A stretch of 62,988 nucleotides of DNA, filler included, from Bonamia ostreae (GCA_040357525.1; 22 parts of 22 records of this genome joined end to end with filler, not necessarily neighbours in it), one strand, 5' to 3'; counted from the whole stretch's first letter, positions 4,682-49,847 are shown. The notes: generated by a model not told the origin, from the letters alone. Made by a program: numbers and translations.

Positions 4682-5271
4682 TCAAAACTGCCTCAAGAAT
4701 TCTTGTGTCACCACACGAGATCTACTGTTGACACTTAGCTTCATCCCAGATATTTCTTTGTCCACCATCTCCATAAACTCGATGATGAAATCGACCACTT
4801 TATGTTTTATCATCTCTTCAGTGTGAAAATTCGTCACCAGAAAACTCAAATCGTATCTGCTCGAGAATAACATTTAAATTATTTCAAACAATTAAAAACT
4901 AAAAAGGCTATAAAAACTCGCCTACTGGTTTTCTCCTCAAAACCTCAAACTCTTCTGCTCGTTGCATGAGGAAGCGCATGAAGCGGTCTGCTAGCACCTC
5001 CTCGAGTTCGTCAGCTTTCTTTAATGCGATTGAAATGCGCACCGAATTGACAGATGGCTCTATCAACACCTTCTCGCGTGCAGTACGGGAGACTTCGATG
5101 GGATCTAGAAGAAGTTCTTTGTTCATTCTCGCTTCGACTTCTGGTTTGTTGTGTCGCTCTATTTTCTGACTGGGGAAATTGCGAAGGCACATTCCTTCGT
5201 TGAGCGCAGCGCGCACCTTTTTCAAATATGGCGCAAGCGTGTTTGCCTATTAACTTGAAAATTTTAACCAT
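4682..5271 (-). CDS. ARPC4: Arp2/3 complex subunit 4
   Basis: [44 protein letters not shown]; 22-nt intron 5247-5268 directly after the ATG. Confidence 0.96.
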
Positions 5272-5797
5272 TTTGTATAAATTTGTTTGGTTCTGTTTTT
5301 ATGATTTCTGGTATAATTAATAACTAATTAATCAAAATTTGGCAAAAAATTTTAATTGGAAAAAATTTAATTTATTTAGTTAATAAAAAATTTTAATACA
5401 AATATAGTTAATTCAAACAGATATTTAGAGAGGAAACGATCTAAAAATTTTTTAAAATTTTTAATTTTAAGGAATCTTCTATTAAGAAGCCTTCCCGAAT
5501 CATCGAATTTTTTAGACATCTAAAGAGATTTATTTAGATGTGTAACAATGGGAAAGTAATAGAAGATGGCGAGATCGCAGCTGATCTAATAACAAATTTT
5601 TCTAAAGTAGGAATATTTACAGTAAAACAAATGTGACGATGACGGAAATATTAACTGCCTTAAAATAATAAAAAGTTTCTACAAAAGTTGTCTACAANNN
5701 NNNNNNNNNNNNNNNNNNNNNNNNNNNNNNNNNNNNNNNNNTTAATTAATTAANNNNNNNNNNNNNNNNNNNNNNNNNNNNNNNNNNNNNNNNNNNN

Positions 5798-7177
5798 ATT
5801 ATAAATGTTGTCTCCCATATAGAGAACTCTCGACATGTTGTAGTTAGTAATCCGATCAAATTCGGCGAAACTTCCGCCGTAGTAAATCTAAAATGAGATT
5901 GGAAACTTTTCCTCTTTCAAAAGTGTTCACTGTGTTGATGCACAAACTTGCAGTGACCGGGTCATAAATTCTGAACGCGTTTTTAGCGTCGTACCAATCC
6001 GGTTTTTTGGAATGCATTATGATTACGTCAAATATCTTTATTTAAAGCGGTTGGCTTTTGCTCAAATGGAATGATTGGTCAAATTTTAAAATTCCGGAAC
6101 CTCTGACCAGTGCTTGATGCCGGAATCAGGGTCATCGACGATAGGAGCGAATATCTTCTCGCAGCCAAGATTTACGTAAAAATGGGTATTGTTGGTCAAC
6201 ATGAACATTTTTTTGCCGGATTTCATAATAGCGTTAACGAAGGAAATGAACTTTTCGCTTGAGCCGATGTACTTCTCCGGATTGGCGCTGATGTTCTTGT
6301 GGATCGTCTTATCGAGATGCACTGCGTCAAAGGCGTTTTGGATATCGATGTAGAGGTAATTGGAGTTAAACTCGATATTCTGTTCAGAGAAGAACTCGAT
6401 GATGTCACTTATCAAATCTTTCGATAAAATGTGCTAACTTGCTACCGGAAGGGCAAACAAATCGGACATCATTTTGAGGTTTTCGGCGGCGTAAATATCG
6501 CTGATCCTTCTTCCAGGATATACTTCCTCGACTTTCGATTGAGAAACTTGTTGTTTGCCATAGTAAACTGTTCCGTACTTTAAATGTTTTTAAAGCTGTT
6601 TGCAATATATTGATTTTGTTTAATGGCTGTAATCGATATATCGATTGTTTGTTACTGTGATTTAATGCCGACCAAGTTTACCGAAATGATTTTAATGCCA
6701 TTTATACAAATCGAAATAATATTGATATTAAGTCCGATTAGAGCTAAATGGTTTCGGAATATCGAACCTGTATCTTTGAAAACTGTGTTAATTTTAAGAG
6801 ATAGCCCGTTTTGATGTCGTAGTGGAGACCGACAATTGAAAATTTTGGGTTAAAAGCAAAATCCCTAATTTCCTTTGGATAGCTCATCTTGTCCACCAGA
6901 TAATTCCTTCCTTCCATGTACGTCATTACGTTAGTTTCTTTCGTATAATTAGCGATCGTGTAGTCATCTAAATATTTGATATAATTTTTAGCTTACAGTC
7001 AAATCCGAAGACTTGGATGTCGTTCAAATGGACGTCGCTGTTGGCGTAAATTTGGCCTAGCTTGGTATCCGCGTAATCGCCCAAATCTTGGCCGCGTTGC
7101 ATTTTCATCTCCAATTCCTCATAGAAAAGTTTTATTTTCTCAATATCTGATTTTTTCAATTTTTTATTGTAAGCCAT
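5798..7177 (-). CDS. 5'-nucleotidase domain-containing HAD protein (NT5DC-like), partial
   Basis: IQVFGFD-YDYT, GLHYDIKTGYLLK, FMLTN, FDVIIMHSKKPDWY motifs. Confidence 0.85.
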
Positions 7178-7455
7178 TAAACGAAGCGTTATGTTTAATC
7201 TTTTAAACGATAATTTTGTAAATTGGAAAAATGCTAAAAATAAATTTATCCTGAAATGCAGTTGATTCCGAAAATTAAACGTTAGAATTTGTTTCATTTT
7301 GGTCAAGTTTGTCCTAAATTTCAATTACAGTTTAGTGATGACATTAATATCGCCATTATTTATATTTTGTTTTGCTTTCACAAATTATATTTTATTTCGC
7401 TTTCTTACAATTCCAAATGTTGAAAAATATTTTTAACGGGAATATAAAAATTTAA

Positions 7456-8591
7456 TCACCAATTCAAATCACTGGAAAAGCAGTAAGATTTGTTTGGATC
7501 GGAAAACTGTTTTCTTATTTTGGCGGCGCAGTTTTTTATTGAAATATTGTTATCCTTCAACGAACTGATTTTGAGCATTTGTTTTTTCCATTTACTTAAT
7601 TTTAAAACGAGAACCAAATGAGCGGAAATTTAAGTAGAGAATAATCAACGAACTGCAAATGGTCGATTATGACGAACAAAGTTACATCCGCCAATGTAAA
7701 CTGCTCCAAAACCACAAACAAATTTTCTTTTTTTAAATCTTCTTCTTCCAAAACCAATTTGGATTCGCCCATTTTTTTATCTGTCCATTTGATTAACGCC
7801 TTTTACAATTCAAAAATTAACTTCGACGGAATCTAAGCTGTCATTGTACCCCAAAACGTTTGCAAGTTTTTCTAAAGTGCTTTCATGGCAATTATTCAAA
7901 CAAGGCGGGGAAATGGGCGTGAACTGGAAAAAGTCTTGAGTTACGGAAAGATTTCCGACGTTAAAAAAAGTCGCTTTATTTTTCGCGTAAAAACATTTTT
8001 CGGTCTTTTTCTTGTTAGCGGAGATCGACGAAAATTTACAAATCGGCGCGCCATTTTTATCCCTAAAATAAAACTGCTCGATGTAGCGCAGATAAATTTC
8101 GATCTCGTTCAAATATCCCTTTTGATTATTGTTACAGTTTTTTTCGTTTTTTATGTGGTTTATAAAGAACGATTTTTTGTTAAAGTTTAAATTTGTTCTC
8201 GTTCAATCAAAAAACATCAGATTCGGCTCTAATAAAACAGTCCTCTTTTTCCAGCTCACATTTTTTGCAGAAAAACGGGCGGAAAATTTTACAGTAAATT
8301 AGTTTTGCGACACTTTTTCGAAGCGTGGAAATTAAGTGTTCGAAAGCCTGATCGACGATGGATTGTTCTTTGGGGTCGGACGGGATCAAAATACTGCCCA
8401 GAAACTTGTTGTTCAGATAACGGATTATGGCGCCGATTTCGAAAAGAAGAAATCCGTTGTCCTCTAAAGCGGGAACTTTCGAACGAGAATAATTGTTCGA
8501 AGATCTGTCAGTATCGTCAAAAAGTTTGACATTACCTTTTCGAAATGTTTTATGAGAATAATTGTTGCGTTACAAAATTCGGACTTATTGC
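7456..8591 (-). CDS. Glutathione S-transferase-fold protein with C-domain insertion (5' partial)
   Basis: KVPALEDNGFLLFEIGAIIRYL...PSDPKEQSIVDQ and C-terminal FTLADV N-capping motif. Confidence 0.7.
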
Positions 8592-8691
8592 NNNNNNNNN
8601 NNNNNNNNNNNNNNNNNNNNNNNNNNNNNNNNNNNTTAATTAATTAANNNNNNNNNNNNNNNNNNNNNNNNNNNNNNNNNNNNNNNNNNNN

Positions 8692-11200
8692 GACCGACCT
8701 TTTTGTGCTGAACGCCACGGCTTTGGTCTTTGATTGCGAGAACTTCAATCTGAGTTTTTCTGCTTCGGACAGGACTACTTTCATATCTTGTGATAGTTTT
8801 TCTCTTAGCGTATTGAAATTTGTCCCTGTTTCGTATATTACAATGTCGTCTGCGTACATCAACGTTTTACACTTGTTGTTAGCAAGTGTGTTTGAGTAGA
8901 TGTTGAAGAGAACGGGCGAAAGAGGACTGCCCTGTGGAACTCCTTTGGGTACGCAGTATAACTCGCTTTTGTTTCGATTAACTCTTATTCTTGCGTTCCT
9001 TCTGCCCAGAAAGTGTCTCAGGAAAGACATAACTGTCTTGTTCTTCGTTATCTGTGACAGCTTTGATATGAGTTTCGGCCGGTCGACGGAATCGTACGCT
9101 TTCGAAAGATCGAAGAACACTGCAAGGGTTGTCTTTCTTTTCTTCAATCCTGCCAAAATGTCCGATCTTAGTATTTGCAGTGGTTCTCTTGTTGAACAGC
9201 CTTTCACGAACCCGAACTGGTTTTTAGGGACGTTGTCCATAAATAGCTTCGAACCAGTGAGTTGTTTAAGGATTATTCTCTCAAACACTTTTGCTATTGT
9301 TGGTAGCAACGCTATCGGTCTCAGATTTTCTGTTCTCAAGGGTTTACGGTTCTTTGGTATCGGCACAATAATTGCTTCATTCCATTCTTGTGGGAACCAA
9401 CCTGAGTTTAACATCATGTTGAACAGCGTCGTCAGTATATCAATGACACTTCTTCCTCCATAAATGAGCATGAAATTGCAAATTCCGTCGTGTCCCGGCG
9501 CTTTGACAATTGGAAGGTCTTCTATAATGGAAGCGACTGCATTCGGAGCTATGATTTGGTTTTTTGGAATGTCTTTGATTTTCGGAGCATTTGAAAGAGC
9601 GAGGTTTGCAGTTTTACTGTAGTTGAATTCTGAAGCAATGTCTGCGGCTTTTATTTCCGTGGGTAATATTTTCTGTGATTTTTTGTTGCCGGAGATACAT
9701 CTGAAAATCTTGTGAGCTTGTTTGCATTCTACTTTTTCAACTTTCTGCCAGAACTTTTCTTTAGCAATTCTGCATCGTTTTTTTATTTCTTTGTTGAACT
9801 CTTTTAGTAGTATTTTCAGCGATTTCGTGGGTTTTTTCTTCATTGCTCTTCTGACTTTGTTCCTTGAGCGAATCAGTTCCCTTATCTTCGGGTTCCACCA
9901 TCCGGTGTTGTTTTGGTGTGTTCTGTTTTTGTTTTCATGAAAGTGGCAACATTCTTTGCTTGTCGATATTAGGCACTTTTTGACTGTTTTGTAAAACTCT
10001 TCGATGTTCGAGTGGCTCTTTTTGTTGAAGAGTCTCAGAAAGTGATTCTCAAATACTTGTTTCTCAGTGTGTTTGAAGTCCCATATTCCATTGGGTGCAA
10101 AGGATGTTCGTGGTGTGGACTCTATGTCAACCAACAATGCGCGATGATCTGAGTTCATGTTCTCTTTTATGGTTTCTTTTTTCTTTATTTTGATTCCCTC
10201 GCTATAGAATAGGAGATCGATCTCTGAGGTTTTCCCATTTGTGCTAACAATAGTTGGCGACATTTTGTTATCTTCGTAGAGTTTTAGATTAGTAGTTTTC
10301 ATGAGATCTTTCAGATTTTTGGCTCTGTACACGCGAAGAGTGTAGCCACAGGTGTGTACAGGCTTCTTTATTGTCGACGGATCTGTGTTGACATCTCCAA
10401 GCATTACTGTTTTTTCGTTTTGTAGTCTGTCTAGTTGGGCTAAATCGTTTCCCGAGTATTTGGGCGGGATATAGACACTGATTATAAGTATTTCTTTTTC
10501 GTCTGTATTTACGAATCTCCCGATTATCTCGGTTTTTTTCATTTCAGGAGGGGTCCAGCTGCGGGAAATAATAGAAGATTTCACATAAATCGCGACGCCT
10601 CCTCCTTTTTTTGTTTTTCTCGGGCGACTGTAAGTATTGTACCCGTTAATGTGTGTTGTTTTCGTGTTCGAGAACCATGTTTCTTGGAGAGTTAGAACGT
10701 CTGGCTTTGATAGAGCATCGAAATCGCGCTGCTCGTTGGCTTCGACAAATATTGTTGTTTTCTCGCTTTTGGGGTTGAGAACATTGCATATTTTCAGTCC
10801 GATATTGAGCTCGGTTTTGATGTAATCAGTCAATTCCTCTTCGGATACCGAGGTTGGGTAACCGTAAATTGCGAAAGTTCTCTTCGCGTCGTGCCATTTT
10901 GTTACTTGAGCTTTTTCTCCGAAGAGTTCTTGTGCGTTTTTTAAGGTGCACGCTTTCTGTGCTTCTGCTTCGGATTTGAAGCTTATCAGGACATCTTTTG
11001 ATGGGAGTTTCCTGCACCCAGCGACCTCGCCGAAATAGCTCTTCATTGCCATCCCTAGTTTGATTGGATGACGCATATCTAGCTTTCTTTCGTCAATGTT
11101 CTGAATCAGAACGGCGTGAAGAAATTTTTGATTTCTGGATTTTTGACCACTTTCGACGTTGTATGAATCGAATTTTTCTTGTGGTTGGACGCTCGCATTT
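8692..11200 (-). mobile_element. Non-LTR retrotransposon (LINE; APE endonuclease + reverse transcriptase), 3' truncated
   Basis: APE motifs QETW, GGGVAIYVK, VYIPP, GDVN, SDH; RT motifs KAPGHDG, RPIALL, QFGF, DLSKAYDSV, GVPQGSPLSP, YADD. Confidence 0.96.
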
Positions 11201-11218
11201 TTATTTTAGCTAAATAAA

Positions 11219-11479
11219 CCGTCTATACCGATGATGAGATCATTAATGAGCTCAACAATTCGGATTTAAAACTTTTCGTTAAAAAAATAAAGTATTTCAA
11301 AAAAAACCGAGACAAAAGTACAGTACTCATTGAGTTTAATTCTAAAGAGAAGTTTAACGTTGCCATCAGTAAAAAATTCCTAGAAGTTGGATGGCAGCGT
11401 TTTCGTATTAAAAAGTATGTTAGAAAGTCACCAATAAGGTGCTTTAATTGTCAACGGTATGGACATTTCTCAAAACTTT
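11219..11479 (+). mobile_element. Fragment of a second LINE gag-like ORF1 with CCHC zinc knuckle
   Basis: Translates ...YTDDEIINEL...STVLIEF...GWQRFRIKKYVRKSPIRCFNCQRYGHFSK; no start codon. Confidence 0.75.
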
Positions 11480-11579
11480 NNNNNNNNNNNNNNNNNNNNN
11501 NNNNNNNNNNNNNNNNNNNNNNNTTAATTAATTAANNNNNNNNNNNNNNNNNNNNNNNNNNNNNNNNNNNNNNNNNNNN

Positions 11580-13984
11580 ATAAAAGAGCATGAATAAGTT
11601 CCTAGACATCCTCTTCTTCCAATTGCTTCTTTTATTTCGTAATAATTTTCTAAAACAAAATTTTCTTCGTTTTTCGGAACCGCTTCAACAAAAAATTTAA
11701 ATTTCTTTTCTTCTACAAAATTCTGTGAACTGTCTTTAAGAACTGCTTTGCAATTTAATAATTCTGTTTTGTTACTTTGAACTGTTATTTTGAATATAAA
11801 AATTTCACTAATATTTGCTCTTATGTTTTTTGTTTGTTGTTGTATTGGTGACAAAATGGCAGGTTTGCAATTTATTGATATCTATTTAATCAAATTTTAT
11901 CAATCTTTTGATTTTAATTTACTTCAAAAAAAAACTGTAAAAAGTGCATTGACATAACCAATGTTTTTGACATTTACACTAATTTCATCAATTTTAAAAG
12001 CGGTTACATTTTTATTGTTAACAACAGCGCTCAATATTTGTCCTTTGGCACTAAATTTTATTTAATTTACATGTTTTTATAATATCTGTACTGATTTGCG
12101 CTCAATGTTATAGAAACTAAAGATTTTACATTTTCTTTTAACTCTTTTGAAAGACAAAACTTGTTTTCTTTTAAAAATTTTAATTTTTTTAAGATTTGGC
12201 ATTTTTAAAATTTCTCCTTTTCGTCAAATGATAAAATTGCCGTTTTGTTTCAAATAAAAATTGTAAATTAATTTAAAACTTTTAAGATCATTTCCAAATT
12301 TGTTAAATCCATATTTGTCAACAAAATTGTTTCCTCTGTTGTGAAAATCATCGATTTGATTTCTAAAGCAGTTATTCGGTTTTGCAGAACATTTTAAAGG
12401 TTCATGTCTGTGAGCACTAAACGAAGATCCAATTTTGCCACATTGTTTGGGATCCATTGTTACCGCTATAATTAAAAAGGGTTTACCGTTTTTGTCAATG
12501 ATCATCCAATTTTTTATTCCCTTTGAAACTCTTTGTGATTTTTCGGGTTCTGTTTGATTACAAAATTTAACTTTCCGCAACAAAAAGCAATTTGTCTTCG
12601 AAAGATTGGGGTGCCCCCAAATTAGCGAAATCGCCTTCAATCGATATTTTAATTCCTTCCAAAAAAATTTTTGATTTTTCAGACGGGGATAATTTGGCGA
12701 CAACCTAATTTTTTTTGAATTTACAATTTTTTTGTTTCTGCTTTTTATCTCAACTTTTATTTCGTAAAAGATTTCAGGTGAACTAATTTCGTACGAAGAA
12801 TAAATATATTCGCCCATTACTGGGCAAACTGCAACAGATTCAAACCTCAATCCGCATTTTCTATTTACTCTGTTCAGTTTTTTTCTTGAAAATATATCAC
12901 AAGAACAACAAAATCCCTTTTGAGATACAATTTTTATCGCTTTTAATTGAAGCCAACCAAAATTAATTTTCACATTTGTTTAATTTATTTATCTAGAATT
13001 AAAAGGTTTTTAATTCGAAAATTTATTTTAGAATTTTTATTGCAAAATTTAACGTTTTTTGGAAAATTATTATTAAAAATTTAACGTTTTTAGAAATTTT
13101 TATTGCAAAATTTAACGTTTTTTGAAAAATTATTATTAAAAATTTAACGTTTTTAGAAATTTTTATTGAAGATTTAACGTTTTTTTGAAAAATTATTAAT
13201 AAAAATTTAACGTTTTTAGTAATTTTAATTCCCAAATTTAACGTTTTTAGAAATTTTTATTGAAGATTTAACGTTTTTTGAAAAATTATTAATAAAAATT
13301 TAACGTTTTTAGTAATTTTAATTTCAAAATTTAACGTTTTTAGTAATTTTAATTCCCAAATTTAACGTTTTTAGAAATTTTTATTGAAGATTTAACGTTT
13401 TTTTTTGACAAATTGTTATTGAAAATATAACGTTTTTAGAAATTTTAATGCAAAAATAAAAAACTTGGCTGTCTGTAACAATATTATTGTTAAAGTCTTT
13501 ATAAAATCCACAAGTGGGAAAACTGCTAAAAGAATCATCGACACAATTTTGGAACAAAAAATGTGTTCCGGCGTGCACAATCCGTTCAGATGGATTGCCG
13601 TTAAACAGTTTGAAGAAATTGCATTTGTAGAAAACATTCAGAGGAGATTTAAATATGTTTATCGAAAGAGGGCTTTCAAGAATATGATCCTCGCCATTTT
13701 GTCGCCAATGACTTATATTCGTTGTTATTGTTTCAGTTGAGTTCTTTAAATATTAAATTTTCGCCATTCAGATATTTTTAAATTTAATTGCAATTTTTGA
13801 ATTTGCAAACGTTTGAATTTTCAACGGCCATTACAATAATAAGTTTTTCTTCGCAAGTAGATTTGGTTAAATCCTCTTTATCGCGTTGACAAAAATTTTT
13901 TAGATTGGTACTAGCAATAATTGAACTAATTGATTTTCGAAGGAAGATATTAATTGATATCAAGATTAATAAAATTGCGGGCAT
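11580..13984 (-). CDS. HAP2: HAP2/GCS1 gamete fusogen (3' partial)
   Basis: Signal peptide; SIIASTNLKNFC..C..KLII N-terminus; PTCG...DSQ|GFCCSC across intron 12917-13464; CGKIGSSFSAHRHEPLKC....NCFRNQ HAP2-GCS1 motif. Confidence 0.88.
13030..13450. repeat. Intronic minisatellite (~29-30 nt unit, core AATTTAACGTTTTT)
   Basis: About 14 degenerate copies inside the HAP2 intron. Confidence 0.9.
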
Positions 13985-14497: not shown

Positions 14498-14882
<385 letters not shown>

Positions 14883-15212
14883 TGGATAATAAATGGCTTT
14901 GGCATTATTTTTAACCTTTTTTTAAAATTGTAACAAATAAAATTCCTTTTTAACCATTTTTTATTTCGCCATATTTTTAACCATTTATTTAACCAAATTC
15001 CTTTTTTTGTTACCAATTTTCGATTTCTGAAAATTTTTCTGTTTGTCAATATTTTTATTTTTGTCGTTTGCTTTTTTGAACTAAAAATATTTGTTCGCTT
15101 TAAAATTCCAATTTTTTTTGAATGCGAAAACAATAAAATCCATTTGAAATATTAAAGAATTGCGGAAATATTAATGAAAAATAGTTTATAGAAAAATTGG
15201 CAACAAATTTAT

Positions 15213-16671
15213 TCACATCTTCATCATTAGAAAACTCTTCATGCACTCACAGAAGGCTTTGATATACGCTTTTTCTTCCAAATTTCGTTCTTTGACGATA
15301 TCGAAAAGTCTGAGAATTTTCTGTCTGACGACAATGGCGTGTTCCATAACAGTCATCAGACCAACACTTTTTTCTCTTTGGTACCAAACATCGATTGCAC
15401 AAAAAGGGAAATCCAGCTGTTTTGGATGTTTGGACAAAATTTCCAAAAGTTGAGGATTTTCTTCGTCGATTTCGTCGTGGCTGTATCGCAAGCCATTTTC
15501 TAACAGTGAATTTGCCTTATTTTTACAATTTTAATTTTTCGAACAAAATTTATAAAATCTTTTTATAAAATAAAGTTCTTTTTCGAACAAAATTTAAATC
15601 GTTTTATAAAATAAAGTTCTTTTTCTAACAAAAATTAAATCTTTTTATAAAAATAAAGTTCTTTTTCGAACAAAAATTAAATCTTTTTATAAAATAAAGA
15701 TCTTTTTCGAACAAAATTTAAAAAATCGTTTTATAAAATAAAGTTCTTTTTCGAAATTAAAAAAAATCGTTTTGTAAAAATAAAGTTCTTTTTCGAACAA
15801 AAATTAAATCGTTTTATAAAAACCTCCTCAAACCAACCGCACTCGACAATCTTCTGCAACTGCACCGCAGTCAAAACCGGACTCACTTCTTTCAACCCAT
15901 CTTCGCCATCCGCCCCCAAAAACAGCGATTTCTCCGATATTAGGACTTTGAACAATTCTCGATCCTTTTTCTCGAAACACAGATTCAGAATTTTTGGGGG
16001 TAACATTTTGCCCTCCGACAACAATTCTTTGATTTTGCCAAAATTTCGCGATTCGCAGAGTTCGACGTACGCGCCATATTCCTCTTGTTGACGCTTCGCC
16101 GATTCGCTGAAAAGTTTTCCGATTTTTTTCATGTTTTCCAAAATCTTTCTTTCCGAATCGTCTTTTGGGCTGTTGGCTAAATCTTGTCGCGACTAAATTT
16201 TTTAATTTGAAAATTATTTTGGAAAATCGAAAAATTATCAATTTTGCATTTTCGCCAAAAATTATTTTTAGCCAAATTGCTAAATTTTAACGAGCAGAAT
16301 TTGCAAAGTTTGTGTGTCTTTGATGAAAAGGAAAATATTAATGTTGAAATGTGTGTTGATGTCCAGAAGATGTCTTACGATATCTCTGTGGCCTTCTTTC
16401 GCGGCTCTGTAAACACAAGCTTCGTCAGCGATTAATCCGCCTAAAATTTAGCAATTTTGGATTTTAGCCAAAAACTTTTGATGAGTTCTTTGACGCGGTT
16501 TAAGTCGCCTTGTTCGCATTGTTTTTTGAGATTGGAACTCGATTTTTTATGAAAAGCGTCGACGTCGATGACATCGCCGCCGCTTCCGCGTTTCCTTTTC
16601 GTTAAAATTTTGACGTCACCGTCACTTCCCGAATTGTCATTAAGTTCGATTGATTTATTGTCAGACATCAA
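15213..16671 (-). CDS. Hypothetical multi-exon protein (possible degenerate ankyrin-like repeats)
   Basis: ORFs joinable by GT-AG introns; CEQGDLNRVKELI and CESRNFGKIKELL motifs. Confidence 0.5.
15536..15822. repeat. Intronic minisatellite (~41 nt unit)
   Basis: About 7 copies of TTTTATAAAATAAAGTTCTTTTTCGAACAAAA-like unit in intron 15516-15823. Confidence 0.9.
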
Positions 16672-27287: not shown

Positions 27288-28497
27288 ATGGCAAAAATCT
27301 TAAAAAATATAAATTCGCAATATTTGAAGTTTGAACAAAATGAATTGGGCACTTCCGAATTAATGGAATTACCTTCGATAAATATTGACAACGAAGAATA
27401 TATTATTATTATGTCCCCAGGTATTTTTTCTTGCTTCAATTAATTTATTTTCACTGTCTTTTTGTTAGAAAATTTATTGTATTTTTAAATTACGATACTT
27501 CAATTTTAAAAATTTTAAATACAGGAAATCCCGGGATTATCCAAATTTACCAAAAATTTTTGGAATCGATTTACAATTTATTTAATCAAAAATACAAGAT
27601 TTTTGGCCGTTTTTTATTTTTATAATAGTTGGTTATTTGGGACATTCGAAAATCGACTTGAACCGGCAAAAAATATACACTGTTGAAGACCAAATTAAAA
27701 ATTTGGAACTTTTCATTGAAAAATTAATAAGAAAATACACAAGAAAAGTAAAAATAGTTTTGATTGGACATTCGATGGGTGCTTATATAAATTTAAAAGT
27801 GATTGGAAATCGCCCCGACTTTCCAATAGTTTATTCTATGAATTTATGCGCTGTTCTCTGCAAATTTAGTTTAGCAATGCTCATGAAAGTTTAATTTTTT
27901 TTAGCAATTATTCGAAAATTTTTTATGTGTTAAAAAGAAAAATTATTGAGAATTTGCTGACTTAAAACGCCAAAAATTAATTTTTTTACAATTGAAAAAA
28001 TTTTAATAACAAAAATAATAGATATTATCTTTTCCTTATTTAAGAAGAATATCAAGTTTCCTAATTTCAAAAACTCCCGAATTCTTAAAATCAAATTTGG
28101 CAAGTTTTCTATTAAACGTTAAATCTTATGACGAAATAATGACGAGTATCGAATATTCAAACAACTTCTATTTCTTAGAAAATGCGCTTTGTACCAGTGA
28201 CAACATTCAAAATATTCTTAGAAATGACATCCCTTCTGAAATATCGGAAACTATTAAAAAGAACAACGAAAAAATCTTGTTTGTTCATACGTTAAATGAT
28301 TATTATGTCACCGATGACGTATTCGAATATGTTAAATACGCACTTCATTTTGGTTTTATTAAAATTTGGTTTACCAAAAAGATTTTTTTGTTAAAATGAT
28401 CAAAATCAATTTTAATTAAATAGCAAACTTCGTAATAATCCCAGAAGAAGAAAATGTCAATCACGCGTTTATCAAAAATGAAAATTATAAAAAAGTG
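27288..28497 (+). CDS. LDAH: Lipid droplet-associated hydrolase (alpha/beta hydrolase)
   Basis: PG|NPG..Y..F, GYLGHS, Y.VEDQI, LIGHSMGAY nucleophile motif, terminal HAF. Confidence 0.85.
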
Positions 28498-30082: not shown

Positions 30083-30596
30083 TTATTTTTGGATTTCGAA
30101 ATGCCGCCAACTGTTCTCCACGGACTCTCCGACGAGTCGATTGTACTCGGGGCGATTGTCTGTAAGCAATTTCGCTGCTCGGCCATTCGCAGGGGAACGG
30201 GGGTTCGGATCGCTGAGGAGGCTCTGGATAGAGCACAAAACAGTCAAAGCGTCGTAAATCGGACTCCAATTTTCTTGCAGAATGTCGAGACAGATGTTGC
30301 CGTCTTCGTAAACTAAAATTGTTCGAAAAACTGTTCGGGTGGAACATCTTTGTTACAAACTTAACTTTGGGCGGTTGAACGGGATATTTTTCGGAGAACG
30401 TCATTGACAGAACAAAAGTGCCGTCTTCCCATTTTGTCTCTTTCGGTCTGTTTTTTCAATAAAATTTTAACCCGAAGATAACAGCGGTCCATTCCAGAAT
30501 ATTGTCTTCGGACGGAGAAGCCATTATTCCATAGGACTCGTCTTTTTGGATATTCTCGAGATCCTTTATCAGCCTTCTTCTAGCTGGAGTAGACAT
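30083..30596 (-). CDS. RAD6: Ubiquitin-conjugating enzyme E2 RAD6/UBC2
   Basis: [44 protein letters not shown]; introns 30448-30471 (24 nt) and 30313-30331 (19 nt). Confidence 0.96.
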
Positions 30597-36327: not shown

Positions 36328-37315
36328 TTAATCAAAGATCCACGGATACCAATCTCTCACACTAATCCGCGCGCTTTTCGTCAAAAGCTTTCTGTAGTGA
36401 TCCGAAACTCCCCCAAAAAAGGGGGCGAAAGCCCCTTCGTCAGAGCAAACCGCCCCGACAGCCAAATAAGAGTACATCAGCAATCTCGGAAACCGAATAT
36501 TAAAATAATTGTAAAATCCATTCGGATACTTCCCAATCAAAACTTTTAGTTCTTTTGGTATTTCGTTGTGATGAAAAGCTTTGTTTCTGATTATTCTCAG
36601 AAGGTCTTTTATCTTCGTGAAGTCGTATTTGCGGAACCGCCCCACGTCAGATATCAGCGCTTTGTCGATTTTGCATTTCCAACTGTCCCCTAGAACTTGT
36701 TTCGCGGCGCTTTCAAGCAGAGCCCTCGCCGCGGAGTCGGCCGACTCTTTTTCGAATCTGTTTGACACCGCGCACAGAAAACGGAGGCACTTTTCTTCTG
36801 CCCAGAAGAAAGGGTGCAACAGTGTGTCCGATATCCGCAAACGCGAATCGGGGTCTCTCTTCAACATGTTTTCCACCAAATGGACTGCTTCTGGCGCCAC
36901 AGAACATCCTTGCGGCAAGTTTAGAAGTCCCTTCGGCAATTCGTCTTTGTTTGTCGCCACTTCAAAGTTTCTGTTCAAAGGGCTTTTGTGGATTGGTTTG
37001 CAACAAAATGTCGTTTTGCGGATTAAGTGAAAACGGAGAAAGTTATCAAAGTTTGAAAATTAAAAAATGCGCAATCGCATTTTGTGTTAACAATTTTGTC
37101 AAAACGAAAACTCGTCGTCGAAGGGATGGTGTCCATTGGTCAAAATGTAGAAAATGATGCAACCGAGCGAAAAGATGTCGATCGCTTTCGTTTTTCTGCC
37201 GTCGCAGAGAACTTCTGGCGACTGCCAGCCCGAAGATCCTTTCGCCGCCGTATTGAATTCGCTCTGGTCAACTTCCAATCTTCTCGATAAACCCATATCT
37301 GCTACCTTCGCCCTT
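36328..37315 (-). CDS. IRE1: IRE1 kinase/endoribonuclease C-terminus (5' partial)
   Basis: ADMGLSRRL, GSSGWQSPE, DIFSLGC, GHHPF, HPFFW, KEN domain DLLRIIRNKAFHHNE..FPRLL. Confidence 0.95.
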
Positions 37316-37464
37316 TATTGTTTTTAAAAAATTATTTTTTATTGTTATCGAAAATCAAATTTTTNNNNNNNNNNNNNNNNNNNNNNNNNNNNNNNNNNNN
37401 NNNNNNNNTTAATTAATTAANNNNNNNNNNNNNNNNNNNNNNNNNNNNNNNNNNNNNNNNNNNN

Positions 37465-38107
37465 GAGTTGTATGACAAGGCGGCTTCGGCTTCGACGTTC
37501 TACAACTTCTCGAAGAAGACGAAGACCAGGATGAACTTTCGTCAGAACTACTATAGTCCGACGATGATGTCGATGAGGTCTCAGAGGAACTCTCTGTGTT
37601 CGAATCCGAAGTGTCTGTTGTGTCCGTACTCGAAAAAGATTCATCATCGTAACCGCCATAAACTGGAGGACGAGGAGGTAAAACCCCCGGTGGGCCCGGT
37701 GGCCCTGGCGGCCCGGGAGGACCCGTAATACCCATTAGTCCTCGAATGCCCGGAGGGCCCATGCCACCTCTCGGCCCTCTCGGCCCAGGCGGAGCAGTCC
37801 CAGACTTCCCCGGCTTTCCTGGAGGCCCTCTCGGCCCGGGATGGCCGGGAATGTTTAGTTGTCTTCCCGGCGGACCCGGGTAGCCAGGAAAACCTTTGAG
37901 GCCTTCGGGTCCGACGGGACCATCTATGACGAATCCACTCAATCCAGGGTTGCCCATGGGACCTTGAATACCGCTATCGCCTGGTTCGCCGGGCAGCCCA
38001 ACAGGTCCAGCTTTGGTTCCTCCGGAGAGACCGATGGAGCCTTGGAGGCCAGTTGGACCGGGAGGGCCTCTGTGATTACTTCTGCTTTGAGAATTTGGCT
38101 GGTTCAT
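37465..38107 (-). CDS. Collagen-like protein with Ser/Thr-rich tail (3' partial)
   Basis: About 40 Gly-X-Y triplets with short interruptions. Confidence 0.9.
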
Positions 38108-38242
38108 TGCTTTAGTTGATTTTGAAGAACACGAATCTACAACTTTATCAAATTTCGCTTTTTGTTATTACTTTCGTCCAAATCTCATTATATTTTACTC
38201 GATTTTGTAATATTTAGGTCAAAATTGGGCAGTAAAAACAAC

Positions 38243-39470: not shown

Positions 39471-39947
<477 letters not shown>

Positions 39948-42233: not shown

Positions 42234-42689
42234 AATTTGGCTTTTTAATTATTGCTGTTATTTAGCCAGATTGGTAAAATTTATATGATTCTGATCAAAG
42301 GCCGAATAGCTAATTTATTGCTAATTTATATACATTTAACAGCGATTAGTAAATAAATTTATATCAGAAATCTAAATTTATTTAGCGCAATAAATTAAAG
42401 CAACTTCCACTAAATCGAATGGTTAAAATGGTTAAAATGCTAAAATGACATATCTTAAAAACGAAGAGATTTGATCAAATACGAAAAAGAGAGATTTGAT
42501 TAAATCTTTGTTGACTAAAAATGTAGCACTAAATTTTAGATGTGATTTCGATCACTAAAATAAAATGTCAAGAAATGTTTGGAAGAATATCCGAACAAAA
42601 ATAACAACAATCCGAAAATCCTAAATAGTTATAAAGCTTCATAAATAAACAAATGCCATATAATAATATCTCCTCATTTTAGACAGGAA

Positions 42690-43049
42690 ATGTATCACAA
42701 ACGCAAACCGAAAAAGCCCAAACAAGTTTTAAAATTAACACAAATAAATTTTTAGCCGCCAAAAAATTGGGCTTGCTTCATGGACAACCTCAACAGAATA
42801 TATTACCACAACCCGACAAACCAAGTTTTCCAATTTAGTACAATTTAGGAAACCTTTATGCAAACGATGCAAGGAATGCTCAACGTGAACGGCCCCTGGC
42901 GACAATTCAAAAATGAACACGGGAAAGTCTTTTACAAAAATAATTTTACCAAACTTGTCCAATGGGCAAAGCCTGACGGATTTGTTGATATCCACAGTCT
43001 TATCGAAGGTTTTTTTGTCAATATAAAGATTTTTGGCAATTCTTTTTAA
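42690..43049 (+). CDS. Tandem WW-domain protein (PRP40-like N-terminus), partial
   Basis: W....D...RIYYHN and W.QFKNEHGKVFYKN..TK..QWAKP. Confidence 0.7.
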
Positions 43050-43186
43050 ATTTTTACGGTGAAATAAAATTGTTAACTAAAAAATCNNNNNNNNNNNNNN
43101 NNNNNNNNNNNNNNNNNNNNNNNNNNNNNNTTAATTAATTAANNNNNNNNNNNNNNNNNNNNNNNNNNNNNNNNNNNNNNNNNNNN

Positions 43187-45451
43187 TTTGACAACAAAAT
43201 TAAATTTCAAACAAATCATTTTTAAATATCAGAAAAAGCTCGACTTCCGAATTTATAAAAAAAGCTTTCACTTATTTAAATCTCCAAATAACAGAAATTA
43301 AAATCGACAAAAGTAAAATAATCCACGGATTGTTGCGTGCTCCAAAATCTGATCAAAAAGAGAGTATTTTAATCGTTTTCAAATACGACGAAAACAAATC
43401 AAAATGTGTTTCAGAAATAACATTTTCTGCTTCTTCTTTGATTTTAAATTTGATTCAACACATTTCAAGTTTTAAAATTTTTTGACAATTCTTCGTTACA
43501 AAAATTTGTTTGTTCAAAGGACAAAAATGGATGAGCAAAGATCTTTTATTTGTTGCGATACCAAAATTGAACTCGGTCAAAGAAGAAACCATTTTAACGA
43601 GAAAATGGATAAACAAATATTATTCAAAAACAAATTTGACCGAACAAAGTTCAATTTTTTATTTTTAGACAAAAATATTTTTAAAAAAGGCGGGAAAATT
43701 TTGGCAGCTTTAGTTCTTGATATTCCGTGCACTTTCGAACCTCGATCTTTTCATCTTTTAACCGGTTTTTTCAATACCAAAAATTAAATCTCTAAAAGCT
43801 AAATTTTAAAAAAGCTAAATTTTAAAAAACTAAATTTTGATTTGATAAAAAGGAAGTAAATTAGGAACATTACCGAATATGGACATTTTTTCTTTTATCT
43901 CAAAACATTTTCGACTTCGCGATATTCCGCTGGCGACTTTTGAAACAATAAATTTCTTCGAAAGCGATTCATTTTTGACGAATTTTTATAATTTTGTTTT
44001 CGAAAAATCGAATTGGAAAATAAAAGATATTTTTGACAATTTTTGGAATATGTTGAAATTTGTCATTTATCAAGCCGGATCTTTCGATAAGCTTAATGAT
44101 GTTGATAGCGCGTTGTTGGAGTTTTTTATAATTTTTTGTAATTTTAAACATTTTTAGAAAAGGGATAGATTCCGTGACATTGAAATCGTTGCCACTAAAA
44201 ACGAAGACAATCAATTTTTTGAACGACAAAAATTCTAAACGACGTCATTTATTCAAGTTTTTTAAACAAATTTCGAAGTAAAAAAGCAATTTTAAAAATT
44301 TCGAACAAAATTAAAAATTAAAATTTTATAAATTTTGAACAAAAAAAAAGCAATTTCAAAAATTTCGAACAAAATTAAAATTTTATAAATTTTGAAAAAA
44401 ATTAAAAAAAAAGCAATTTTAAAAATTTCGAACAAAATTAAAATTTTATAAATTTGGAACAAAAAAAAAAGCAATTTCAAAAATTTTCGAACAAAATTAA
44501 AAAAAAAAGCAATTTTAAAAATTGCGAACAAAATTAAAAAAAAGCAATTTTAAAAAATTAGAACAAAATTAAAAAAATTTTTAAATTTCGAACAAAAAAT
44601 TGAAAAATCAATTTTAACAAATGATTAAAATTAAGCGTTCTGTTAAATTTCGTCCGCTCATTCAGCAACGTTCACGAAAAATTGCACCATTCTCTTTACA
44701 TGTACATCGTCTTATCTCCTTTCAAAATAATTCGCTTTTCTCTTTCCGAATTTTCACTTTTGTTCTTTCTTTTCCCAAATTTCATCTTTATCGTTGAAAC
44801 TTATTTGGAAAGAAAAAGTTCTCCCGAAAACGCCACAAATTTCTATCTCTTTTTTAATATTATTTTTTGCTGCATTTTGATGTGGTTACTTCCTTTTATT
44901 TTTCACCCGATTTCTTTGAATGTTTTTATCCAAATTTGAAAATTTTTAAATTAGACAAATTTGATCATCGCTGTCAATTTTGCTCTTCTTTTAATTTGTT
45001 TTTATGTTTGTTACAAGATCTTTTCTAAAAAAGGTTTACTTAAATAAATTCAGTGAATTTGGATGTTACCAATTCGCTGTTTACGTTATTTTTTACACTC
45101 AATGTCATCTGTCTCAGTTATATAAATTTTTCACTTGCTTTAGTCAATTCAATTGCAATAACGCCTTTTTTAAGCATTTCAAGAACAAAAACGAGCACTT
45201 GTAAAAAATTTGTTCTTTTTGTCTATTTATTTTTCTTGTCAAATTTCTTTTTCGGAGTGCTTTATTCGGTTTCAAACGAAAAAAGCCAGTTTGGAAAAAT
45301 GTGGGAGGATTTGTTGAAAGGATATTTGGATGTTACTACTTTTAGAAATATCAATTACTTTTGCTTTTTTGTACACTTCTTTCCGTCTTTGTTTCTTCTA
45401 CTTTTTCGGATAAATTTTCGATGTAAATTTGGGAAAGATAAAAAAGATTAA
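43187..45451 (+). CDS. GPAA1: GPI transamidase subunit GAA1/GPAA1 (5' partial)
   Basis: GLLRAPKSDQKES, G.LPNMD, RSFSNVHEKLHHSLYMY, multi-TM C-terminus. Confidence 0.85.
44275..44600. repeat. Intronic degenerate minisatellite
   Basis: Repeated AAAAAAGCAATTTTAAAAATTTCGAACAAAATT in intron 44257-44635. Confidence 0.85.
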
Positions 45452-45728
45452 ATAATTTGATTTTTTTATTTAATAAAAAGTGTTCAAAAACTTCAAAATT
45501 TAAAAATAATTTGTTCAAAAATCTGTTTTACAATCGCAAAAACAATATTTAAAATATTTTTGAAAATGGATAAAATAAAAATGGTCGAACTTTAAATTTG
45601 AAGACGGAAAACAAAATTGCAAATCGAAATTAAAAATTTTGTTAAAAAAAAGATAAAATTGTTTAAAAGTGTTCATAAAAATCGTGAAATCAATTTTATA
45701 TTAAAAAAATCACGAAATTAATCAATTA

Positions 45729-45946
45729 ATGTTGGAATCCTTTTTGCTGCTTATTTTGGTAGTTAACATTAAATCAGAGCAATGTCAATTGCCAGAAAAA
45801 ACTCAATTTTACAGTTTCAAAAAAACAGACGAAAAAAACATTTTTGTAACAACACACTGCAAATTTAGTGGAAATCCCGTTATGAACGCCTTAGAAAAAG
45901 TTGAAACAGAATTTTATTTGTATTGCGATGAAGCCAATAGTTCATT
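45729..45946 (+). CDS. Putative secreted Cys-containing protein (3' partial)
   Basis: Signal-peptide-like MLESFLLLILVVNIKS followed by C.LP. Confidence 0.5.
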
Positions 45947-46046
45947 NNNNNNNNNNNNNNNNNNNNNNNNNNNNNNNNNNNNNNNNNNNNTTAATTAATT
46001 AANNNNNNNNNNNNNNNNNNNNNNNNNNNNNNNNNNNNNNNNNNNN

Positions 46047-48454
46047 GACAACAACAACTAAAAAGTACTTTAAACAAAATGAGGCACAAACAAAAATCGA
46101 CAACAACAACTAAAAAGTACTTGAAACAATATAAAAAATTAAAGCACCGAGCGTCACGGGAAACATCTGCTGAACCGTGATAACATTTAGAGCAACAAGT
46201 GGTACCAAAGATGAAGTAGTTATCGAAGACGATTGGATTATAATCGTTATTACACAACCGACTAACATTCCGACAACCACATTTTTGAGCAAAGCTCTTT
46301 TTATCCAATTCGAAGTTTGTTTTTTCAAAGCGAATGACATCAATTTGGTCAAAGCGAACAAAGAACTAATTATCAAAATCAAAGAGATCGCAATGGCGAT
46401 TCCGGCCGAAGCAGAATCACTGATTTTGGAGCTCTTCAAGATGCCACTTTCAATCAAACTTTTGAAGTAATAGGAACAGCGAGGACATTTTGAGATTGGA
46501 ATGTTCGATTGAGAAGGATCGAAGTCGGAGGGACAGAGTTTGGAAGCGCAGTTTGCAATGCATCTTTGGAAGAAATTTGACTGATCCAAGTTTGTTCCTT
46601 CGATGTTGGCCAGTTTCAATAGACATTTATTGATCTTTTGGAAATTTATTGAAACAAGTACTTCTTTCAAAAATTGTTTTTAAATNNNNNNNNNNNNNNN
46701 NNNNNNNNNNNNNNNNNNNNNNNNNNNNNNNNNNNNNNNNNNNNNNNNNNNNNNNNNNNNNNNNNNNNNNNNNNNNNNNNNNNNNAATTTTCGAAAATAA
46801 ATATTTTATCGCATTGAAACAAGTACTTCTTTCAAAAATTGTTTTTAAATAATTTTCGAAAATAAATATTTTATCGCATTGAAACAAGTACTTCTTTCAA
46901 AAATTTTTTTTAAATAATTTTCGAAAATAAATATTTTATCGCATTGAAACAAGTACTTCATTCCAAAATAAATATTTTATCGCATTGAAACCTTCAAAAA
47001 TGAATTAACATAAGGTTCAGTCATGTGTTTTATAAAGTTCAGCTTTTTGGTAGTGTCGGAGTTGCTGTTTTTGGGGAGTGGCATGACAAGATAATACGAC
47101 AAAAGCTCCATCCACCCTTTCCCGTCGTAAATCGGAATCATTTGCGTCGGCAGAAAAATGAGCACGAGGAAAATGTTGAAGAAGTCGTGCACCGTGGCGC
47201 CTTGCATCGCGCGCCTGAATTGCGTCGCCTAAATTTTCATTATCGTTTGATGTAAACGCCAAACATCGTTGATGTGTCCCAAAGACACCAAGGTGTTGGT
47301 GACAGACGTTCCGACATTGGCGCCCATTATAATCGGAATCGCATATTTGACGGTTAAAACGTTCGAAGCCACTAAAGCGACCGTCAAACTAGTCGTCGTC
47401 GACGAAGACTGGAAAATTACTGTCGCGATAATGCCGATGCTCAGCCCTTCCCAAAATATCGATTAATTTGCTCATTTGCAAATTGCTATTTATTTGTCAT
47501 CGAACCATTTATTTTTGTTCGTCGAGCTTAACGGTCTTTAGACCCTGAAAGCCCAACATTTATTTGTCATTGAGCCATTTATTTTTGCTCGTTGAGCTCT
47601 TAACGGTCTTTAGACCCTGAAAGCCCGACAATTATTTGTCATCGAACCATTTATTTTTGTTCATTGAGCTTAACGGTCTTTAGACCCTGAAAGCCCAACA
47701 TTTGTTTGTCGTTGAGCCATTTATTTTTGCTCGTTGAGCTTAACGGTCTTTAGACCCTGAAAGTCCGACATTTATTTGTTGTTGAGCCATTTATTTTTGT
47801 TCATTGAGCTTAACGGTCTTTAGACCCTGAAAGCCCAACATTTGTTTGTCGTTGAGCCATTTATTTTTGCTCGTTGAGCTTAACGGTCTTTAGACCCTGA
47901 AAGTCCGACATTTATTTGTTGTTGAGCCATTTATTTTTGTTCATTGAGCTTAACGGTCTTTAGACCCTGAAAGCCCACTACTTAAAGACTTTATAAGACG
48001 TACCCACAAAGAAGCGTTTTAAGGCGATCAAATGTGATCAATTTTATAGCATCAAATTCGAATATTAAGAATTTACATATATTTGTAAAGCTTAAAACTA
48101 AATGTTATTTTAATTCGCATAATGGTTGCATGTAAAATTTAAATGATTGCAAAAACCAGCCATTTCGTTATTAGCGAATTCGAATATGTTTCTGGTATGA
48201 TAACCAGAGATGATTTTGATGCCAGCGCTCATCATAGAAATGTTGGCGAAAAATAAAATCAGCAACAAGAAGAAAGCGATAGCGATTAAGGCCACTTTCC
48301 CAACTTTTCTAAGGCGCTCTTTGTGACTTAATTCTCGCCAAGTTTTCTCTTTTAGAAATTTGGCTTTTAAATCTTTTTCTCCCAAATTAATGAACGTAGA
48401 AGATTTGGACGTTTCTGATTTAAAAGACGCCATAATCGAGTTTCGGATTTCCAT
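46047..48454 (-). CDS. SLC34/NaPi-II sodium-phosphate cotransporter (3' partial)
   Basis: QSSSTTTS, PIIMGANVGTSVTNT, GATVHDFFN, second QSSSITTS, P.TLGA. Confidence 0.95.
46647..46991. repeat. Intronic ~65 nt tandem repeat beginning with the donor sequence
   Basis: GTTTCAATGCGATAAAA...GAAGTACTT units on the - strand; scaffold gap inside. Confidence 0.9.
47488..47977. repeat. 7 x 70 bp tandem array inside SLC34 intron 1 (47447-48156)
   Basis: GAGCTTAACGGTCTTTAGACCCTGAAAGYCC at 47524, 47594, 47666, 47736, 47806, 47876, 47946. Confidence 0.97.
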
Positions 48455-48902
48455 TTTTATATAATTGGATTAACGAATTTGTAACTGGAAATTGTTATCA
48501 GCGTTTACAATTTAAGCAAAATTAATATTTGAATTTTGTTAGTTTGAGCTACCCGGACTATTTCATGATATAAAGCTTATAAGATAATCAAATTATATTC
48601 AGAAAACTTAATCGAGGTTATTGACTAATTGCAATGTCGATATTGATCTTAAATCGTTTAAATTTACTAATTGCAAATTTCTCCATGTCAATCCACAAAA
48701 TTGCCCAAAATTGCCCAAAACTCGAATCGATTTTGACAATTTTTAGTCGATAAAAATTTTAATCTTTAATTATTATTTCGACGCTTCGTTTTCGAAGATA
48801 TGNNNNNNNNNNNNNNNNNNNNNNNNNNNNNNNNNNNNNNNNNNNNTTAATTAATTAANNNNNNNNNNNNNNNNNNNNNNNNNNNNNNNNNNNNNNNNNN
48901 NN

Positions 48903-49847
48903 CCGACATTATCGAGGCCACGGGGTCGATTCTAGAAACCACAGCCAACACATCGACGAAGCTGTTTTCGTCGGCCGACTCCAAATCGCGCAGCGCCGAA
49001 AAGTTGTAATTCTCCTTTCCGATCCGCCTGTCGTCCACGACGACTTGCACTACAGATTCCGCGTCCAAGGTTATTTCGTAGTCGTTCCGAATGTGCGTAA
49101 ACTTTTTGTTCGCCAGCTTCACTCTTCCTCTCGCGATGACATAAACTTTGTCCTCCGCGAAGACGTCTCCGAAGCGGTCGACCGCTTCGTTGAACATCGT
49201 CGCTCTGATCTCTGTCCCGGATTCGTCCAGCAGATCGACGCTCATCACTTTCCCGGAGCCGGTCGACTTTTGCCACATTCGCACCGGCGACACTGCGGTG
49301 CACCGCACGCGGACTGCCCACTTGCCCCTGTACGGATTGAGGGACTCCAACGGGACGATGGATTGCTCGAGGTCGCTCAGCACGTTCGGGTCGCCGTTGA
49401 GTGGTTTGAACTTTTTCGGTTCTGTTTTGGGCGCTTCGGTCGGTCTGTGCTTTCTCGTTTCCGCGTCGGGGCTGTAGTCGGCGTAACTGACCGAACTGCC
49501 GATTTCGCTGCCGATCGCTCCGTTGACCAGTTCGCCTTTGAGGGCGACGATGACTCTTTTGATAGGCGATAAAACTTTTTTCCGTTTTTGGCCGTGTTGA
49601 CTCTGAACTCGTCGAGGCGGACGATGGCGAAATTTTTGATTCGGCCGGTTTTGATGGCCAGTCCCAAGTTGTTGGTGCAAACGCCTTCCATGTGGTGGCG
49701 GCCATCGGAGAGGATGATGATGTAGCGCTCGGCAGAGGCCGAGCCACGTTTCGTCATGTTTTGGATGTGGATGATTTGGAGGAGAGGTTTTGTGGTCGTT
49801 TTGCCGTTAGAGATGTCTATTATTGCGTTTTTGCTGAGGTTGTCCAT
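48903..49847 (-). CDS. RPA1: Replication protein A 70 kDa subunit (3' partial)
   Basis: RY.IILSDG, SLNPYRGKW.VRVR, DLLDESGTEIRATMFN, ANKKF...NDYEI; 20-nt intron 49556-49575. Confidence 0.96.

Follow-up and report, generated by a model that had tools for sequence, protein, structure and literature searches.

Miniature GT-AG introns with a GTT(T) donor and an (A/T)AG acceptor in the oyster parasite Bonamia ostreae

By which signals are introns of about 20 nucleotides (nt) recognised when their 5' splice sites do not follow the canonical GTRAGT? This question is raised by a window of 62,988 nt, i.e., the whole stretch of DNA analysed here, from Bonamia ostreae, a haplosporidian oyster parasite (Ascetosporea, Rhizaria) with an assembly of 12.24 megabases, an N50 of 1417 bp and 33.3% G+C, as given in the available text of its genome paper (PMC11069148, Hiltunen Thoren et al. 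2024). The same text reports a "mean introns per mRNA 2", and its wording on B. ostreae is "carry canonical introns" (PMC11069148). A sequence-only reading of the window had proposed a miniature-intron splicing system with a pyrimidine-rich donor, and the catalogue described below supports the observations behind that proposal. The introns are read here, with a probability of about 0.85, as nuclear major-spliceosome GT-AG introns of the ordinary kind with unusual signals, mostly ultra-short and sharing one lineage-specific signal set, GTT(T)NN and (A/T)AG around an A+T-rich body.

The window consists of 22 B. ostreae contigs in length order, from 2,799 down to 2,729 nt, separated by 21 identical spacers of the form N44-TTAATTAATTAA-N44 (e.g., 2800-2899 and 5698-5797). 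Since the pieces are joined by spacers, no synteny can be read from neighbours on different pieces, and the piece ends truncate genes. The splicing system had been assigned to 5247..49575, and the introns of that span are real; it is not a single locus, since the spacers divide the window into 22 contigs. None of the catalogued introns crosses a spacer. Exon queries against the NCBI B. ostreae proteins gave 99-100% identity, matching RPA1 to P0001 (MES1920503.1), NMD3 to P0013 (MES1920512.1), ARPC4 to P0163 and ODC to P0283. According to the available text of the genome paper, these models were produced with funannotate, using published B. ostreae transcriptome reads as training data (PMC11069148).

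For 11 conserved genes, all GT..AG pairs able to join adjacent open frames were listed and the homology-supported pair was retained, with exons checked by Pfam profile continuity, NCBI models and homologue alignments. The resulting catalogue holds 27 introns, comprising 21 of class A (high confidence), four of class B and two of class C. The genes modelled here carry up to five introns each. A tally of all frame-restoring dinucleotide pairs was dropped, as overlapping open frames in A+T-rich DNA gave thousands of candidates. The class A and B introns are as follows, of class A unless stated otherwise; arrows join the profile positions on either side of a junction.

5247..5268, minus strand, ARPC4 intron 1: 22 nt, GTTAAA..ATAG, immediately past the ATG; spliced protein equals P0163; Pfam ARPC4 from profile position 2 on exon 2.
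4857..4917, minus strand, ARPC4 intron 2: 61 nt, GTTTTT..GCAG; equals P0163; Pfam profile 109 -> 112, two residues between.
1451..1474, minus strand, ODC intron 1: 24 nt, GTTCCA..AAAG, in frame and without a stop, preceding the AVKCN motif.
901..1132, minus strand, ODC intron 2: 232 nt, GTTTTT..AAAG; exact in P0283; counted as class B and later found spliced identically in that model; 19-20 nt tandem array at 1009-1077.
488..532, minus strand, ODC intron 3: 45 nt, GTTTTT..TAAG; VISEP/GRFFVES matches AEPGR(Y/F) of homologues; absent from the NCBI model.
193..215, minus strand, ODC intron 4: 23 nt, GTTTAG..AAAG; the spliced GPT...MGAYT segment is gapless against homologues.
6968..6996, minus strand, 5'-nucleotidase intron 1: 29 nt, GTAAGC..TTAG; sole candidate joining FGFD to DYTIANY; exon 2 from Pfam position 20.
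6578..6767, minus strand, 5'-nucleotidase intron 2, class B: 190 nt, GTTCGA..AAAG; Pfam 5_nucleotid 86 -> 87.
6418..6438, minus strand, 5'-nucleotidase intron 3: 21 nt, GTTAGC..AAAG; Pfam 129 -> 132, one residue and a split codon between.
6036..6100, minus strand, 5'-nucleotidase intron 4: 65 nt, GTTCCG..AAAG; sole candidate; Pfam 227 (+15 amino acids) -> 239.
5888..5906, minus strand, 5'-nucleotidase intron 5: 19 nt, GTTTCC..TTAG; Pfam 281 -> 283.
14727..14784, plus strand, UBC E2 (UBE2D-like) intron: 58 nt, GTTTTT..AAAG; DPNP joined to DDPLV; exon 1 reaches UQ_con position 113; Pfam cannot score the short exon 2, whose motif we take to be that of the family.
30448..30471, minus strand, RAD6-like E2 intron 1: 24 nt, GTTAAA..ACAG; single candidate; UQ_con 34 -> 37.
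30313..30331, minus strand, RAD6-like E2 intron 2: 19 nt, GTTTTT..TTAG; UQ_con 74 -> 76.
49556..49575, minus strand, RPA1 intron: 20 nt, GTTTTA..AAAG; spliced ...AKNGKK/VIVALKGE...; 308 amino acids, equal to P0001.
61848..61867, minus strand, NMD3 intron 1: 20 nt, GTTTCT..TTAG; gapless against P0014.
61681..61790, minus strand, NMD3 intron 2: 110 nt, GTTTTA..TTAG; gapless against P0014; 2.2 copies of a 32-nt unit.
61503..61521, minus strand, NMD3 intron 3: 19 nt, GTTTCA..TTAG; gapless against P0014.
61337..61364, minus strand, NMD3 intron 4: 28 nt, GTTGAA..AAAG; gapless against P0014.
60746..60880, minus strand, NMD3 intron 5: 135 nt, GTTTTT..ATAG; identical to NCBI P0013.
56673..56731, minus strand, glycosyltransferase (DXD) intron: 59 nt, GTTTAA..AAAG; Pfam Gly_transf_sug 59 -> 62.
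27609..27628, plus strand, lipid-droplet hydrolase intron: 20 nt, GTTTTT..ATAG; Pfam LIDHydrolase 36 -> 40; one donor common to both candidates.
12917..13464, minus strand, HAP2/GCS1 intron: 548 nt, GTTTTT..AAAG; Pfam HAP2-GCS1 114 -> 115; mostly a 31-nt tandem array.
47229..47264, minus strand, Na/Pi cotransporter intron, class B: 36 nt, GTTTGG..TTAG; placed by frame logic, with no Pfam match on exon 2; the family motif at the junction is presumably the expected one.
36983..37111, minus strand, IRE1 intron, class B: about 129 nt, GTTTTC..AAAG, acceptor uncertain; all four candidates start GTTTT; Pkinase 198 -> 225, about 22 residues between.

The ends are GT..AG in all 27 catalogued introns, the candidates having been preselected as such, and removal restores the conserved frame. 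The five introns of 19-24 nt named by the sequence-only reading all read GT..AG on the minus strand at the lengths it gave, and removing them restores conserved proteins. Spliced translations equal the NCBI models P0163, P0001 and P0013 and, for two of the ODC introns, match P0283, and Pfam profile coordinates run unbroken over 12 further junctions. With both of its introns removed, ARPC4 is a protein of 168 amino acids identical to P0163, the Pfam ARPC4 profile covering 2-109 and then 112-166 on two exons. Similarly, UQ_con positions 1-34, 37-74 and 76-137 fall on exons 1, 2 and 3 of the RAD6-like E2. Spliced NMD3 aligns with P0014 at 59% identity and without gaps over four junctions, P0014 being encoded in one piece on a 1573-nt contig. 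Wider comparisons were sought in other sequence collections: a metagenome scan for haplosporidian NMD3 relatives returned nine loci, all at 26-39% identity and too distant for intron comparison, and the RPA1 relatives in JGI and ENA were likewise too distant.

The donor is a positive consensus, GTT(T), going beyond a weak or degenerate site. Position +3 is T in 20 and A in one of the 21 class A introns, T in 24 of 25 when class B is added and in 26 of 27 overall, with GTAAGC at 6968-6996, the one donor of canonical appearance, as the lone exception. Two controls set this count in context: decoy GTs from the 90 exonic nt that precede each true donor carry T at +3 in 38 of 89 cases (Fisher p=5e-6), and 46% of all GTN in the window do so (binomial p=2e-6). 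At +4, T again predominates (T 14, A 4, C 2, G 1; class A). The pyrimidine-rich, here T-rich, non-GTRAGT donor described earlier thus holds for the miniature GT-AG introns and has a consensus of its own. The GTRAGT consensus fails, with A or G at +3 in one of 21 and G at +5 in two of 21, and the earlier remark that GTA and +5 G are rare is correct, GTA being found in one of 21. T occurs in eight of 21 at +6 and in eight of 21 at +7. No intron with homology support was found to use GTCACA or GTCCAT, two further donors listed earlier; for GTCCAT there is a candidate at 7783-7837 on the plus strand, antisense to the GST gene. On the exon side, the donors look faintly canonical, with C or A at -3 in 16 of 21, A at -2 in 10 of 21 and G or A at -1 in 17 of 21.

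The class A lengths are 19, 19, 19, 20, 20, 20, 21, 22, 23, 24, 24, 28, 29, 45, 58, 59, 61, 65, 110, 135 and 548 nt, which fall into groups of 19-29 nt (n=13), 45-65 nt (n=5) and 110-548 nt (n=3). The modal length is below about 25 nt and 11 of the 21 measure 19-24 nt. Rather than the uniform band of 1-4 nt seen in ultra-short-intron genomes, 13 of 21 introns of at most 29 nt are accompanied by a long tail. Introns of several hundred nt had been reported to stand beside the tiny ones, and they do, with 548 nt in HAP2 and 232 nt in ODC. Eight of eight listed class A or B introns of 45-65 nt or of at least 110 nt start with GTT, and the donor is GTTT in the 548-nt HAP2, 232-nt ODC, 135-nt NMD3 and 110-nt NMD3 introns. 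The 232-nt ODC and 135-nt NMD3 introns are spliced in the NCBI models, and the 110-nt NMD3 intron is backed by P0014. Among the class A or B introns of at least 110 nt, four of six overlap tandem arrays (13.7 x 31 nt, 2.2 x 32 nt, 2.8 x 15 nt and about 3 x 19-20 nt), so that the long introns look like short ones expanded by minisatellites, with the same machinery reading both. The arrays are located as follows.

13026-13455: array in the HAP2 intron, 13.7 copies of 31 nt.
61684-61767, 60803-60842, 1009-1077, 46786-46969 and 15535-15821: further arrays in long or probable introns, units of 15-65 nt.

Read on the gene strand, the 31-nt unit of the HAP2 intron opens with a donor-like GTTAAA.

Could the T-richness of the donor simply reflect the composition of the introns? 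If so, no donor consensus would exist beyond GT, and length would be the cue by which tiny introns are recognised, an idea put forward for nucleomorph introns. The intron interiors are indeed 81% A+T (T 39%, A 42%, C 12%, G 7%), donor positions +5 to +10 display only A+T richness without a clear further preference, and the 18-21 nt introns of the Bigelowiella natans nucleomorph are described, in the available text of the source, as having no motif beyond GU-AG (PMC6009652). Yet, as nearly equal A and T would predict similar numbers of both at +3 and +4, unlike the 20 T to one A and 14 T to four A observed, the donor consensus is regarded as genuine. Nearby decoy GTs, moreover, have T at +3 in only 43% of cases, and a ruler for 20-nt introns cannot explain why introns of 45-548 nt share the donor. 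Composition is accordingly an unlikely explanation, and recognition mainly by length, which had been offered as one inference from the tiny introns, is unlikely as the whole story because the same GTTT donor also heads introns of 45-548 nt.

At the other end, the acceptor is (A/T)AG without a polypyrimidine tract, none being found in the catalogued introns. Position -3 is A in 10, T in nine, C in two and G in none of the 21 class A introns, while decoy AGs have G there in 26 of 91, and -4 is A in 13 of 21. The acceptors, noted earlier as often A-rich, are thus borne out as A/T-rich, with A or T at -3 in 19 of 21. The branch region is less clearly marked. Over 22 introns, YTNAY, CTNAY, YTRAY, TRAY and CTAAC show no excess relative to shuffles, with YTNAY in 10 of 22 against 9.7 expected. 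CAA, a motif picked post hoc, occurs in the last 18 nt of 14 of 22 introns, where shuffles give 6.2. Of the 41 C's in this region, 18 precede AA, compared with 17% in the window as a whole, a count subject to the same post hoc choice. Lying 5-14 nt before the 3' AG and often of the form A/T-CAA-A/T, the motif may be a weak branch-region signal. The earlier statement that no branch consensus is evident therefore stands for the standard motifs, and the weak post hoc enrichment of CAA allows for a branch-region signal that it did not foresee.

A different objection is that the short inserts stay in the RNA, whether as errors of assembly or sequencing, as small genuine protein insertions or as elements that translation bypasses. 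Having no stop and keeping the frame, the 24-nt unit at 1451-1474 might in principle be read as protein. However, a frameshift or a stop is present in 12 of the 13 tiny class A units (19-29 nt), every one of them has exact GT..AG ends, and artefacts are not expected to be so uniform in their ends or to keep within 19-29 nt. Homologues lack an insertion at any of the junctions, and the transcriptome-trained NCBI models excise the units, the in-frame one included: P0283 reads ...KPFYAVKCNPDE..., without the eight residues that the 24-nt unit would encode, and PFYAVKCN is uninterrupted at this site in P0283 and in five ODC homologues. Retention is hence very improbable. Scarcely to be entertained is a minor (U12-type) or other non-U2 class, to which the non-canonical donor and the lack of a polypyrimidine tract might point, as U12-type introns have the donor /RTATCCTT and the branch box TCCTTAAC, and none of the 27 donors resembles the former, no TCCTTAAC-like box was found in the introns (CTAAC 0 of 22), and the introns are frequent, with all those examined in each gene sharing the same signals.

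For major-spliceosome introns with a GTT(T) donor, the 5' splice site would be read via U at +3 and +4 in place of the usual A/G and A. Altered small nuclear RNAs (snRNAs), the other inference offered earlier, might then take the form of a U1 whose 5' end has co-evolved to an A-rich complement, by analogy with Entamoeba. Alternatively, recognition could be independent of U1 and lean on the ACAGA box of U6, in which case G could form a wobble pair with the +3 U, and A a pair with the +4 U. The 3' end would probably be the first suitable WAG (W being A or T) a few bases beyond a loosely marked branch region that may lie around CAA. No snRNA genes were found in the window by an Rfam scan at the gathering score and at E<=1.

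The Entamoeba donor is GUUUGU(U) and the 5' end of its U1 is ACAAAC, and a gain in pairing with the U6 ACAGA box has been noted (Roy and Bowser, 10.1101/2022.06.08.495308). In the available text of the same source, GUUUGN is found in 97-98% of Entamoeba introns and U is preferred at +7 (10.1101/2022.06.08.495308). As described there, Entamoeba resembles B. ostreae in having U at +3 and +4 and A/U-rich introns, with snRNA co-evolution as an obvious expectation. It differs in keeping G at +5, which B. ostreae has in two of 21, with no clear preference at +7; it is also intron-poor, its U1 is known, and it is an amoebozoan, so that any likeness to B. ostreae would be convergent.

Several points weigh against reading the introns as one lineage-specific signal set with the mechanism outlined. 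The candidate listing was restricted to GT..AG, so that non-GT-AG introns would escape it, and the catalogue is small, with 21-27 introns from 11 genes, all of them conserved. An unbiased screen of open reading frame junctions gave T at +3 in 32 of 60 unique GT..AG candidates, many of which are antisense or spurious, making the screen too noisy to strengthen the case. An ab initio Viterbi gene finder based on a 3-periodic Markov model had a coding signal of 0.046 nats per nt and mis-modelled NMD3 and other genes, and thus serves as a lead only. RNA-level support is indirect and consists of the transcriptome-trained annotation and of P0014, the contiguously encoded protein of a relative. The CAA motif, besides its post hoc choice, is missing from eight of 22 introns. 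Both mechanistic branches are inferred, and Entamoeba provides an analogy rather than evidence for B. ostreae. Finally, +5 is not G, and the full U1/U6 pairing scheme of Entamoeba therefore does not carry over directly.

B. ostreae combines two known oddities, ultra-short introns and an Entamoeba-type GUUU donor, but without +5 G and with a tail of long introns. No literature on intron length or a GTT donor in B. ostreae or haplosporidians was found, with subscription journals (e.g., older papers on Haplosporidia actin genes) lying outside the coverage of the search. The closest comparison is offered by the mikrocytids Mikrocytos mackini and Paramikrocytos canceri, for which the available text reports 224 introns of 16 or 17 nt (217 and seven, respectively) with a highly conserved sequence (PMC10245619). 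Their spliceosome is described there as drastically reduced, the snRNAs found being only U2, U4 and U6 (PMC10245619). As far as this description goes, they are, like B. ostreae, Ascetosporea, rhizarian parasites of invertebrates with ultra-short GT-AG introns that share sequence features, in an A+T-rich reduced genome. They differ in the fixed length of 16-17 nt, whereas B. ostreae peaks at 19-24 nt, reaches 548 nt and conserves only GTT(T) and WAG, a comparison based on the written description of the mikrocytid introns.

More distant systems share the small size. The B. natans nucleomorph has abundant GT-AG introns of 18-21 nt that are efficiently spliced and, according to the available text, have no discernible branch point or polypyrimidine tract (PMC6009652). 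These introns are tiny GT-AG introns without a polypyrimidine tract as in B. ostreae, yet they are described as having very narrow lengths and belong to a relict endosymbiont nucleus, whereas those of B. ostreae carry T at +3/+4, have a long tail and lie in the organism's own nucleus. In heterotrich ciliates, donors are of the GTA type. The heterotrich Stentor coeruleus has introns of 15-16 nt and an apparently complete snRNA set, as cited in the available parts of two papers (PMC13644364, PMC10245619). It is similar to B. ostreae in its tiny introns and differs in their fixed length and in belonging to an unrelated lineage.

These comparisons invite a tentative extension, which is possible but less likely than not. 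Haplosporidians, and perhaps all Ascetosporea, may have rebuilt 5' splice-site recognition on GUU(U), either via a rewritten A-rich U1 5' end or via loss of U1 with U6 and U5 reading the site, and the introns of about 20 nt in B. ostreae could be an intermediate toward the 16-17-nt introns and stripped-down spliceosome of mikrocytids. If true, a donor consensus changed at both +3 and +4, as in Entamoeba, would have arisen naturally a second time and independently, here without +5 G and in a genome where many genes hold several introns. How donors and snRNAs co-evolve is still debated, with very few natural systems in which to examine it, and the Entamoeba case has been called the most direct available evidence for it, in the text available (10.1101/2022.06.08.495308). 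With B. ostreae, this evidence would gain an independent lineage that has U at +3/+4, no +5 G, multi-intron genes and more extreme relatives in the mikrocytids.

The introns also bear on existing annotation. Public B. ostreae models under-call tiny introns: the ODC model P0283 runs through the 45-nt intron (488-532) into a stop and loses the C-terminal domain, and the NMD3 model P0013 begins at MLLKQ, without four upstream exons (region 61337-62026). As tiny introns are missed, this probably influences the published figures of about two introns per messenger RNA and a short mean coding sequence. Domains may be undercounted where gene content is compared on the basis of these models, a practical matter for a notifiable oyster pathogen.

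Other features were observed in the window. A homologue of the gamete fusogen HAP2/GCS1 is encoded at 11531-13752 on the minus strand (Pfam PF10699, E down to 1e-24); to our knowledge, no sexual cycle has been described for B. ostreae. At 8647-11205, also on the minus strand, a frame of 853 amino acids holds endonuclease/exonuclease/phosphatase and reverse-transcriptase domains and resembles a retrotransposon of the long interspersed nuclear element (LINE) type, on a contig with a higher G+C of 0.36 that may be of parasite or host origin. Open reading frames with GPP-rich collagen triple-helix repeats lie at 37412-38164 and 39474-39947 (minus strand) on the most G+C-rich contig (0.41), which may or may not be parasite DNA. 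Together with the LINE reverse transcriptase and the tiny introns, these repeats had pointed to a dicyemid or orthonectid animal as the source of the window, a reading rejected because an RPA1 exon matches a B. ostreae protein at 100% identity. A weak transfer RNA (tRNA) match of 31 bits, not called by ARAGORN, is located at 2218-2288 on the minus strand, and a tRNA-Leu(AAG) gene at 1777-1858 on the plus strand adjoins the ODC gene.

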